From a virus: a stretch of DNA of 41,135 nucleotides. The stretch lies in the UHGV virus genome UHGV-0094207; one strand, 5' to 3'. Below the pieces are notes generated by a model that was not told the origin of the DNA, searched no databases, and saw only the letters and a list, made by a program, of their open reading frames with translations. The position numbers were made by a program, and so were the translations under genes. Positions 6,292-7,622 of the stretch are shown piece by piece. The stretch's first letter is position 1, and the number at the start of each line of letters is the position of its first letter.

Positions 6292-6521
6292 TAGTCCTCC
6301 AGTGGAAAAATCCGCTGAATTTTGGTTGCACGAATCCCTCGCCAAAAGGCGAATAAAAGTTTGGGTTTCGTTTCAGTAAATGCCCCATGAAGAGGCACTT
6401 AGTGAAACGGGCGACTGCAATCGCCGGTTAGTTTCTCCACTCAATTGAAAGCGCGTTCCGCTGGTTTTGGATTTAACGAACTGGCACTTAATGACAAGTT
6501 ACAGAACGCGCTTTCAGTTGA

Positions 6522-6569
6522 GTAAAAAGGGCGGTACCAGGGACTTCAAAGGTTGGTACTGGTACCGCC
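6522..6569 (-). terminator. Candidate rho-independent terminator downstream of the tRNA
   Basis: Inverted repeat ggcggtaccag / ctggtaccgcc (11-bp stem, 18-nt loop) followed on the minus strand by CUUUUUAC. Confidence 0.5.
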
Positions 6570-6621
6570 AAGACTCCACACAGCTTTCTTACTTCCTGGT
6601 ACCACGCTGGCTACGTGATTC

Positions 6622-6699
6622 TGGTGCAGCATGCAGGATTTGAACCTGCGACCCACGGCTTAGAAGGCCGTTGCTCTATCCAACTGAGCTAATGCCACA
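6622..6699 (-). tRNA. tRNA-Arg(UCU)-like gene with encoded CCA and an apparent 8-nt anticodon loop
   Basis: Reverse complement folds as a cloverleaf: acceptor GTGGCAT/ATGCTGC (two G-U pairs), U8, D-arm GCTC-AGTTGGATA-GAGC, anticodon stem ACGGC/GCCGT with loop CTTCTAAA (U33, UCU anticodon), T-arm GCAGG-TTCAAAT-CCTGC, discriminator A, CCA. Confidence 0.7.
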
Positions 6700-7540
6700 A
6701 CTGGAAGCGCACTCCACCTGTTTCACACCTGTCACCCATAACTGGTAAGTAAAGGAGTGCGCTTTCATGTTGTGTTCGCGGGGTCTACTTCCCTCCTGTC
6801 ACGGTTCTTTCCCCGCGTCATCATGTGTTCATTCGGTACATGAAACCCATTTGTCAGGATTCCACCGGCTCCCATCAGTTTTTAAAGACACTCAGATATC
6901 GTCTGGTCTGTGCCGTCTCTTCCGGCTGTCATCCGGGTTGAACTCGCCCTGAACGAGATTGAAGGGTTATAGCCCCTTACGGCATTCACGCCCTCTCACG
7001 TGTGTCGCGTATGCCACGCCAGCGCTAACGAGTTTTAACGACCTTTGCCGTTTGCATCATCTTGTCGCCGCTGTTATCGGTGCGGAACCGCCACTGTCCA
7101 GGACATTTAAAAGGACCGTCTCCAAGTGGTAACTCTTCCAGTCCCGGTAAGCACTCTGCGAAATACTTACCGTGACCGGCTGTTATTCCCTGAAAAAGGC
7201 TGGCGGTTACCGGACAAACGGGAAAACATCGGGCCGCCAGAACAGGGAGTTACTTGTTATTGCTTTGGCCTGCTTTTAACCACATCAGGCGCGGTGGTAG
7301 GTATCTTCGGGCGGGGTGCTAAGGGGGTGATTAGCCCTTGCCCTTAACACTCCTGCTGGTTTTGGTATTCCTGGCTTGGGTATCGCCACCAGCTATAGGA
7401 ATTTGACTACGAGTTGGGGTTAATCAGACCGCGTCTCTGTTACCCCTCCCGAAGACACCTGTCAGCGAATCATCCGGTTATTCATACGCCACCGGCGGCT
7501 ACTTCGTGGGCGTCCTGCCTGTTCGCTGCTGATGAATGGA

Positions 7541-7569
7541 ATCTAACTTAACTTAGCTTTTAGATCAAG
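7541..7569 (-). promoter_or_regulatory. Candidate pL promoter downstream of cI
   Basis: On the minus strand: TTGATC, 17-nt spacer, TAGATT; the spacer contains a CTTAG motif like those in the oR region. Confidence 0.35.
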
Positions 7570-7622
7570 AAAAAACACCAAACTATTCTTAGCTTGATGT
7601 TAAGAGGAAGGTTAGAGGTAGG

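Follow-up and report, generated by a model that had tools for sequence, protein, structure and literature searches.

A three-way-junction RNA at the predicted start of an untranslated pL leader in an N-less lambdoid prophage

The lambdoid phage HK022 carries two cis-acting antiterminator RNAs, putL and putR, which bind the zinc-binding domain of the β′ subunit of RNA polymerase. To our knowledge, early-gene read-through in lambdoid phages that lack N is known for HK022 and its put RNAs alone. The boxA element of the nut sites and of the ribosomal RNA (rrn) operon leaders is the loading site of NusB/NusE. Untranslated RNA is a natural substrate of Rho. The authors who described phage LLS in 2025 stated that it lacks an N homologue and guessed at a put-like mechanism (PMC12315714). 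A literature search on SfV, SfIV and ST64B returned nothing relevant on early antitermination. The present analysis concerns UHGV-0094207, a viral genome of 41,135 nucleotides (nt) analysed over its whole length (the window). The window is a lambdoid prophage, and the element under study is the minus-strand stretch between its cI repressor gene and its first early-left gene.

Comparison with related loci indicates that this stretch is the untranslated leader of the pL operon in a lambdoid prophage that lacks N and is of the e14/SfV/ST64B/phiP27 type, and that the leader is a mosaic of separately conserved non-coding RNA modules, which are reordered between phages. The module nearest to the promoter, designated M6, apparently represents an undescribed and very widespread RNA family with solid comparative support. 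From the predicted pL start on, the order is M6, M5, motif X with terminator t1, M3a, M3b, hairpin H1, a tRNA gene, terminator tL, hairpin H2 and the 5′ untranslated region (5′UTR) of the first early gene (6291). All these features lie on the minus strand, and positions are those of the window.

M6 occupies positions 7459-7532, and about 7 nt separate it from the predicted pL start. It was first seen when the pL regions of phages whose operators are unrelated (SfV, ST64B, ZF40, YeP1 and E. coli prophages) were aligned, as a block of about 70 nt just past the promoter. A pattern scan of viral contigs then gave alignment A1, with at least 120 contigs matched and 85 distinct sequences among the matches listed. 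RNAalifold predicts in A1 a three-way junction of 74 nt, with the helices P1, P2 and P3 around a 13-nt junction strand (J2/3, CACGAAGUAGCCG). P1 pairs 7520-7526 with 7465-7472 and consists of 7 base pairs (bp) and a bulged A. P3 has 5 bp and the loop GGCRUAUGAAGA. P2 is a 3-bp GGC/GCC helix with the loop AGGAC, and it is invariant, hence its pairing is without covariation support. In A1, 98.9% of the cells are paired and 135 cells carry double changes, values reached by none of 500 shuffles; registers slid by 1-3 columns give 19-41% paired cells. Four pair types occur at two positions of P3, and the outermost pair of P1 is either G-C or A-U, apart from one U-A.

Because the first scan had fixed the junction sequence, a second set (A2) was ascertained in species-representative genomes, with a pattern that left the junction and P3 free. 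The matches were confirmed by the M6 covariance model R1, which scores 99.4 bits on the window. A2 comprises 52 species genomes, with 98.2% of the cells paired, 70 double-change cells and again 0 of 500 shuffles at the observed values, the slid controls reaching up to 42%. The junction CACGAAGUAGCCG is still at least 90% conserved in this set, whose genera include Xenorhabdus, Photorhabdus, Yersinia, Serratia, Erwinia, Kosakonia, Buttiauxella, Kluyvera, Phytobacter and Rahnella. The covariation of P1 and P3 in two independently ascertained sets indicates that M6 is a real RNA structure. No Rfam family matches it, and a literature search with its core sequence string found no paper.

The candidate pL (7540-7568) has the −35 hexamer TTGATC (7568-7563), a 17-nt spacer and the −10 hexamer TAGATT (7545-7540), so that transcription would start near 7533. 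It lies just past a predicted intrinsic terminator of the cI transcript (7601-7574 on the minus strand), in which a 12-pair stem and a T-run directly follow the cI stop codon; equivalent cI terminators are found at the same position in SfV, ST64B, ZF40, YeP1 and e14. Operator-like direct repeat copies (7545-7559 and 7581-7595) flank pL. The candidate scores 8/12, under the threshold of the promoter scanner. However, phage LLS has near-identical operator-like repeats at the same place, with the stronger −35 hexamer TTGACC. A pL had been proposed here in the initial annotation, and its hexamers, the repeats and the similar arrangement in LLS agree with that proposal. The same annotation had placed the region at the position of rexAB or N in lambda. 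The comparison is apt for N, which lies downstream of pL, and fails for rexAB, which lies between cI and pL.

The position of M6 relative to pL is maintained among its relatives. A cI-like gene on the same strand ends a median of 110 nt upstream of M6 in 110 of 151 loci, and the best −10 hexamer ends 13-16 nt ahead of P1 in 95 of 132 distinct upstream regions. This spacing suggests that the pL transcript enters the M6 structure at about +7 to +10. A second M6 copy was found neither in the window nor in the related loci, pR side included: R1 has a single match in each of them, always on the pL side.

Of 5426 complete E. coli genomes, 1383 carry M6, which also occurs in the genomes of at least 52 Enterobacterales species and in more than 120 viral contigs. 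It is unannotated in every record among the matches listed, RefSeq included. The cryptic prophage e14 of E. coli K-12 MG1655 carries M6 between ymfK (cohE) and ymfJ (79.2 bits; NC_000913.3 1202107-1202181, minus strand), as the 5′UTR of ymfJ and directly after a TTGACA/CATAAT promoter downstream of ymfK. In a dam mutant, the ymfJ transcript belongs to the most strongly induced ones, with those of the SOS genes recN, recX and yebG (PMC11741368), which fits an SOS-derepressed pL at e14. Owing to this copy in K-12, the hypotheses about M6 discussed below are open to standard genetics at once.

The sequence that follows M6 differs from phage to phage and includes genes of ClpX-type zinc-finger proteins, SfV orf33, M5 and opposite-strand morons. 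The commonest recognisable family encoded by the first open reading frame (ORF) after M6 is that of small ClpX-type C4 zinc-finger proteins (start MNxxFTCS...), which was found in at least 11 loci (e.g. L006 3187-3552 and several viral contigs). In 45 of 196 loci (23%; 26 distinct sequences), M6 is followed by a boxA of rrn type, GCUCUUUAA(C)AA. This boxA is placed 34-38 nt after M6 in all but a few of these 45 loci, against a background of 0.02 per kb. A hairpin, AAGCGCCC...GGACGCUU, precedes the boxA GCUCUUUAACAAUCUGG in such loci, for example at L005 4100-4160 and L261 3290-3330. The leader of the window (6292-7533, minus strand) has no match to boxA (CGCUCUUA / GCUCUUUAACAA) with up to 2 mismatches.

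A different pL leader is found in the E. coli prophage Ec-U1 (L007 4170-4290), which shares with M6 only the 3′ end GAUGAUUCGC, the hairpin and boxA. In place of the 5′ part of M6 it has another hairpin, likewise with AUGAAGA in the loop, and R1 has no match there. The Ec-U1 leader may represent a sister family of M6.

The minus strand from 6292 to 7533 contains no credible gene except that of a tRNA-Arg(UCU). Between this tRNA (6622-6698) and cI the longest entry of the ORF list has 73 amino acids (aa), and on the minus strand from pL to the tRNA no ORF exceeds 36 aa. The ten longest ORFs of the stretch have no significant match in Pfam and marginal matches only in PHROG, the best (E = 0.0038) to a 35-residue family without assigned function. 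The earlier view that no convincing ORF lies between the tRNA and cI is thereby upheld. The ORF-free leader runs beyond the tRNA up to the first early-left start codon at 6291, which gives it a length of about 1.24 kb. A covariance-model check, also proposed earlier, was carried out with Rfam 15 at the gathering threshold for the whole window and permissively (E up to 5) for 6000-7900. The tRNA was the single family found, and the non-tRNA matches of the permissive search are at chance level.

Between pL and the first early gene lie two predicted intrinsic terminators in the sense orientation and 1.2 kb of untranslated RNA. The terminator t1 (7193-7240) consists of the stem CUGGCGG...CCGCCAG (7240-7200) followed by CC and UUUUU (7199-7193), and has −14.5 kcal/mol in the terminator scan. 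Its module is conserved in 14 loci downstream of a variable cargo slot; in Nissle 1917 it comes after the ClpX-type zinc-finger gene. The second, tL (6514-6584), has a stem at 6569-6530, C and UUUUU at 6529-6524 and the upstream box GCUGUGUGNAGUC. The stem arms (6530-6540/6559-6569) are 11 nt long and 100% complementary, and together with the U5 run they account for the terminator-like hairpin of the initial annotation. The 70-nt tL module has BLAST matches in 46 loci; in 24 distinct aligned sequences the stem and the U-run are conserved and the loop is variable (fold z = −3.26; −19.5 kcal/mol in the terminator scan). Nearly all of the 46 loci are without a tRNA, therefore the module is not specific to the tRNA. 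Both t1 and tL have the G+C-rich hairpin and the U-run on the transcribed strand that are expected from intrinsic (Rho-independent) terminators, and they are classified as such from sequence. At least one terminator is found within 1.5 kb of M6 in 98 of 125 loci.

A role for M6 at these terminators can be outlined as follows. Upon cleavage of the S24-type repressor, RNA polymerase would start at pL and make M6 first. M6 would then fold on the nascent transcript and alter the elongation complex, alone or, where boxA follows, with Nus factors. The altered complex would pass t1 and tL and resist Rho on the long untranslated RNA, and this read-through would deliver the tRNA and the early-left genes. 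The hairpins H1 and H2 and the closing helix of M5 would serve as double-strand-specific processing sites, which together with RNase P would free the tRNA and the M5 RNA. The unrelated sequence after M6 makes a local expression platform less likely and favours an effect on the transcribing complex, and the fixed distance of boxA likewise points to the elongation complex. A processing or antitermination element had been among the options of the initial annotation, and it is plausible in view of the two terminators, the hairpin that abuts the tRNA 5′ end and the boxA in 23% of the relatives.

An action of M6 in antitermination, or read-through of the leader terminators, is thus put forward tentatively and ranks first, followed by a 5′-terminal protein-binding or stabilising element and then by a trans-acting RNA. 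More doubtful is the complete proposal, in which M6 would be a new class of nascent-RNA regulator of polymerase, structurally unlike put, that confers termination and Rho resistance (alone or with boxA/Nus), replaces N and is active in a quarter of E. coli strains, K-12 e14 included.

Several observations weigh against antitermination by M6. The plaque-forming phage LLS (L135 2200-2900) has neither M6 nor M5. Its pL transcript runs directly into motif X, then through a terminator like t1, a hairpin of H type and a terminator of tL type whose stem differs, so that M6 is not indispensable for a phage of this design. In e14, ymfJ follows M6 directly, with no terminator between them. Each phage has one M6 copy and none on the pR side, versus putL and putR in HK022, and M6 and put show no likeness in sequence or architecture. 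Downstream of M6, terminators in the sense orientation are not enriched over antisense ones (1.13 vs 1.20 per locus). Folded as a single sequence, M6 does no better than its shuffles (z = −0.62), and the minimum-energy structure keeps P1 and loses P3; an alternative pairing of M6 positions 20-24 with 44-48 (P3 loop) is possible. Finally, the cleavage of the long hairpins by RNase III is pure conjecture by analogy.

A second explanation considers M6 as a 5′-terminal regulatory or stabilising element that binds a protein, either a host factor such as CsrA or a phage protein, and sets the stability or translation of the cargo rather than termination. This is possible, although rather doubtful. 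M6 always occupies the 5′ end, none of the loci examined has M6 joined directly to motif X or to the next terminator, and LLS is devoid of both M6 and the cargo. The next start codon is 25-35 nt after M6 in e14, Nissle and SfV; however, what lies between M6 and that codon is unrelated from locus to locus, with no sign of a conserved pairing to the ribosome-binding site, and no ORF follows M6 in 27 M5-bearing loci and in the loci of boxA type. The invariant P2 loop C-AGGA-C and the GGAUGA of most members resemble the GGA motifs of CsrA type, but the second GGA is lost in ZF40-type members (UAGAUGA). The boxA at fixed distance also speaks for the elongation complex rather than for such a function.

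The module M5 (7296-7463) is a predicted structured RNA of about 165 nt, in which an 18-bp closing helix with one bulge surrounds three stem-loop domains. Its single-sequence fold has −70.2 kcal/mol (z = −5.98). In alignment A3, with 40 distinct sequences from 54 viral contigs, the 52 pairs are 99.3% intact and 7 pairs have compensatory changes, a result attained by 0 of 500 shuffles; slid registers are 40-48% paired. Three conserved G·U pairs of M5 are possible in the minus-strand RNA only, which fixes its strand as minus. M5 follows M6 by 4 nt in 27 loci and by 250-800 nt in others, and 15 of 53 loci have no M6 within 1.2 kb, which argues that M5 is independent cargo. The M5 type of the window has no match in complete E. 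coli genomes or GenBank phages, and no Rfam family was matched. A second M5 type keeps a 17-bp closing helix (GGUGUCUUCGGGAGGGG / CCCCGCCCGAAGAUACC) around an unrelated interior (L262 3290-3437, and about 2575-2720 of the ST64B locus L011); the L262 locus encodes a cI protein identical to that of the window. The closing helix thus looks as if it were a frame for exchangeable RNA inserts.

These features of M5 are the basis of a third explanation, which is rather unlikely. In it, pL, M6, M5, motif X and t1 would give an RNA of about 340 nt ending at t1, and/or a processed M5, that acts in trans on the host or on competing phages as autonomous RNA cargo ('RNA moron'), the rest being spacer. M5 is compact, strongly folded and covarying; it stands at variable distance from M6 or without it, it takes the same slot as protein-coding cargo, followed by the terminator t1, and it has a variant in which the same closing helix holds another interior. 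On the other hand, RNA cargo leaves unexplained why M6 is anchored at the transcription start, why it is far more widespread than M5 and why it is associated with boxA. As regards M5, the RNA-cargo explanation is compatible with antitermination by M6.

A riboswitch-like function, with M6 as a ligand-binding three-way junction that gates the early-left operon, is improbable. The three-way junction, its conservation of at least 90% and its place immediately downstream of the promoter recall such elements, but no conserved expression platform is present: the sequence after P1 is wholly different between members, no terminator or helix sequestering the ribosome-binding site overlaps P1, and the cargo genes suggest no common metabolite.

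The remaining explanation concerns the stretch as a whole. A search by tblastn with ten cargo proteins, encoded by neighbouring prophages at the same position, found no trace in the window except for mEp390_036, and this match covers a stretch of the window without an ORF of at least 30 aa on that strand. As the match is not open in the window, the ORF call is read as probably spurious. A frameshifted cargo gene, and with it the decayed immunity-region moron that the initial annotation had suggested, was consequently rejected, tblastn, Pfam and PHROG all being negative. The idea that the stretch is decayed coding sequence, or conserved 'linker' DNA for recombination between phage modules with no function at the RNA level, would suit the sharp module boundaries, as at recombination joints, the short ORFs called by other annotators on parts of it (mEp390_036) and the one weak PHROG match (E = 0.0038), but it is very improbable and appears largely refuted by compensatory changes that keep the pairing and not the sequence in M6, M5 and the hairpins, by the strand-specific conserved G·U pairs of M5, and by the lack of a Pfam match, of frame-preserving conservation and of an open mEp390 frame in the window.

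The mosaic character of the leader is evident from BLAST searches against phages, E. coli genomes and fetched loci. They never recover the whole stretch and return sharply bounded pieces of 75-99% identity in varying combinations and orders. The same pieces enclose protein-coding cargo in other prophages, namely a ClpX-type zinc-finger gene in Nissle 1917 and genes on the opposite strand in further E. coli prophages. The minus strand of 6700-7560 as a whole folds better than its shuffles (z = −3.7), and the hairpin folds are strongly non-random (z = −4.7 to −6.7). In the homologue alignments, a check that had been recommended beforehand, M6, M5 and the hairpins keep their pairing through compensatory changes. 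A structured leader, another of the earlier suggestions, is accordingly the one that is strongly supported, by its place downstream of the predicted pL, by the covariation in M6 and M5 and by the non-random hairpins. The region is neither a decayed gene nor mere spacer. The immunity-proximal 'moron slot' of these phages carries RNA cargo (M5, the tRNA) besides protein cargo, framed by conserved terminators and long hairpins.

The long hairpins H1 and H2 flank the tRNA. H1 (6696-6775) has the outer stem CACAAC/GUUGUG, an internal loop, an 11-bp inner stem (AAGCGCACUCC/GGAGUGCGCUU) and an apical part of about 38 nt; its inverted repeat (6702-6715/6754-6767) is 14 nt long at 93% (fold z = −4.65). 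In eleven homologues the stems of H1 are conserved and the apical parts are variable. H2 (6439-6523; ACUCAACUGAAAGCGCGUUC ... GAACGCGCUUUCAAUUGAGU) is a paralogue of H1, with an inverted repeat (6439-6458/6504-6523) of 20 nt at 95% (fold z = −6.56). Both repeats contain GAAAGCGC/GCGCTTTC. In an inverted-repeat scan that allowed up to 10% mismatch in the arms and loops of up to 60 nt, the arms measured 22 and 14 nt. The longest arm of 60 dinucleotide shuffles had a mean of 8.1 nt (maximum 14), and arms of at least 14 nt occurred 0.03 times per shuffle. The two inverted-repeat pairs described earlier around the tRNA are thus recovered, with coordinates that agree within a few bases.

H1 and H2 belong to a hairpin family of the form 5′-CAAC(A)UGAAAGCGCxxUCC ... 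GGAxxGCGCUUyCAxUUG-3′, and the differences between them are compensatory in both stems. A pattern search found single copies in most hairpin-bearing loci, including phages without a tRNA, and a pair in three loci only, all with this tRNA-Arg. BLAST shows that mEp390 has both tRNA flanks side by side, with the tRNA missing. A small peptide in H1 (MKAHS...) was rejected, the 3′ arm being read in different frames in different phages with no conserved ORF. An integron attC-like reading of the CACAAC/GUUGUG hairpin ends was also rejected, as the core sites do not fit the consensus RYYYAAC/GTTRRRY, and no integron-type integrase is annotated in the loci inspected.

Motif X (CCACCGCGCCUGAUGUGGUUAAAAGCAGGCC; 7267-7297) is a recurring element of module boundaries. 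It is conserved in 14 loci as the 5′ part of a module M4, recurs as CCACCGNGCCUGAUGUGGNNAAAAGNCAGGC before H-type long hairpins in L005, L049, L063 and L007, and opens the pL transcript of LLS. A possible H-type pseudoknot can be drawn for it, with CCAC/GUGG interleaved with GCCUG/CAGGC. M3a (7063-7186) combines a covarying hairpin, GGUAAGYAU...RUGCUUACC, with a near-invariant 60-nt segment. It has eleven distinct homologues, including those of mEp390, Kp4865-1 and Phytobacter, a fold z of −2.0 and no conserved ORF. The structured 5′UTR of the first early-left gene (6313-6412) has predicted hairpins at 6369-6409 and 6339-6352 and the conserved sequence GGGAUUCGUGCAACCAAAAUUCA; compensatory changes occur in its first hairpin across ten homologues (fold z = −6.70).

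M3b (6857-6931) is a two-hairpin motif of lambdoid prophages (CAGACGAUAUCUG... and GCCGGUGGAAGCCCGGC in relatives), whose single-sequence fold is not significant (z = +0.44). A spacer within the tRNA cluster of N4-like Gamaleyavirus phages matches its part 6857-6911 at 89% identity, and M3b also lies upstream of tRNA-Ile in Phytobacter prophages, which suggests that it travels with tRNA genes. The BLAST match beside the tRNA-Cys of N4-like phages had raised the idea of a decayed tRNA array; it was abandoned, since neither ARAGORN nor the tRNA model detects another tRNA in the window and the shared piece is the spacer motif. In the Gamaleyavirus Escherichia phages PBM-3 and UE-S5a (L003/L004 1200-2400), a 'non-coding' gap of about 700 nt in the tRNA cluster carries the M3b motif and several T-arm-bearing tRNA-like elements without an ARAGORN call. 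Just upstream of this gap are sub-threshold matches to tmRNA_permuted (32.7 bits vs a gathering score of 47).

The tRNA-Arg (6622-6698) has the anticodon UCU and an encoded CCA (6624-6622). It was called by ARAGORN and scores 68.8 bits with the Rfam tRNA model against a gathering score of 29, and it is the sole Rfam or ARAGORN feature of the whole window. Near-identical copies occur in E. coli prophages. The last 3 nt of H1 are the first 3 nt of the tRNA, so that RNase P cleavage would fall at the base of H1. The acceptor stem has U2·G71 and G3·U70, and the discriminator is A73. G3·U70 with A73 forms the identity set of alanyl-tRNA synthetase, so that mischarging of the prophage tRNA-Arg is conceivable. 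Among the homologues, that of SPN9TCW has G3-C70 and that of an Aeromonas phage has G3·U70.

Among the genes around the leader, the cI repressor (7623-8249, minus strand) is of S24/LexA type, and the divergent cro (8352-8579) is followed by a YmfL/CP76-type gene (8590-9141). The early-left genes, which include that of a ParB-like protein, lie to the left of the leader. In this part of the window, the closest named relatives are the phages LLS, ST64B, phiP27 and those of the SfV group. The ORF list places the first early-left ORF at 6034-6291 of the minus strand (MNHLEF...); it has the ribosome-binding site GGAGGA 5 nt upstream and marks the end of the leader; an equivalent small ORF is found at the same position in a related E. 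coli prophage. Inside it, at 6204-6214, is a run of 11 C (G11 on the coding strand), possibly a slipped-strand, phase-variable tract or a hotspot of assembly errors.

The leader shares features with several described systems. As in the GOLLD and ROOL RNAs, several hundred structured bases without an ORF lie beside a prophage tRNA gene; in contrast to these, the leader has no Rfam match and is a chain of independently shuffled modules rather than one RNA domain. The hairpins H1 and H2 and the M5 helix resemble the RNase III sites of the T7 intergenic regions, the lambda N-leader and sib: they have 17-22 bp with small internal loops, conserved stems and variable apical parts, and are placed between the units of a polycistronic phage transcript. 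They differ in that the stems are also conserved in sequence, beyond the need of RNase III.

The rrn operon leaders (boxB-boxA-boxC; NusA/B/E/G, SuhB and S4) are likewise long, untranslated and structured transcripts that escape Rho and contain a tRNA to be processed out. The boxA of the M6 relatives follows a hairpin, as in rrn leaders, and is identical to the rrn-type core, GCUCUUUAACAA. On the other hand, the window is without boxA, and we know of no counterpart of M6 in rrn leaders. The nut sites of lambda, P22 and phage 21 are placed with N at the start of the pL transcript and answer the same need, the read-through of terminators to the early-left genes, and the boxA beside M6 in 45 of 196 relatives adds to the likeness. 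However, a search of the window leader found neither an N-like ORF nor a boxA/boxB nut site, no 15-nt hairpin of boxB type was seen, and the boxA of the M6 relatives comes after M6 and a hairpin, which is the order of rrn leaders and not of nut.

M6 also shares features with HK022 put. Both M6 and put are structured RNAs of about 70 nt immediately downstream of pL, in lambdoid phages without an N-type antiterminator and with terminators downstream. Their structures begin within a few nt of the 5′ end: putL starts from A3 of the transcript (PMC9378689) and P1 of M6 would start from about +7. Their architectures differ, put consisting of two side-by-side stem-loops and a triplex and M6 of a closed three-way junction with P1 as closing helix. 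With E values up to 10 allowed and the filters switched off, R1 matches neither putL nor putR, blastn-short of putL and putR against the window gives scattered chance matches of 9-15 nt, none of them in the leader, and Rfam holds no put family. A second put copy follows pR in HK022, whereas each M6-bearing phage has one M6 only. Reportedly, put acts with no dedicated protein factor (PMC9378689), whereas a quarter of the M6 copies are paired with boxA. M6 is placed outside the put and nut families, because it does not show their testable defining features. Even if M6 proves to be a stability or protein-binding element, it would represent a widespread and precisely delimited new RNA family. Its place in the pL transcript is exactly that at which the early read-through element of N-less lambdoid phages is expected.

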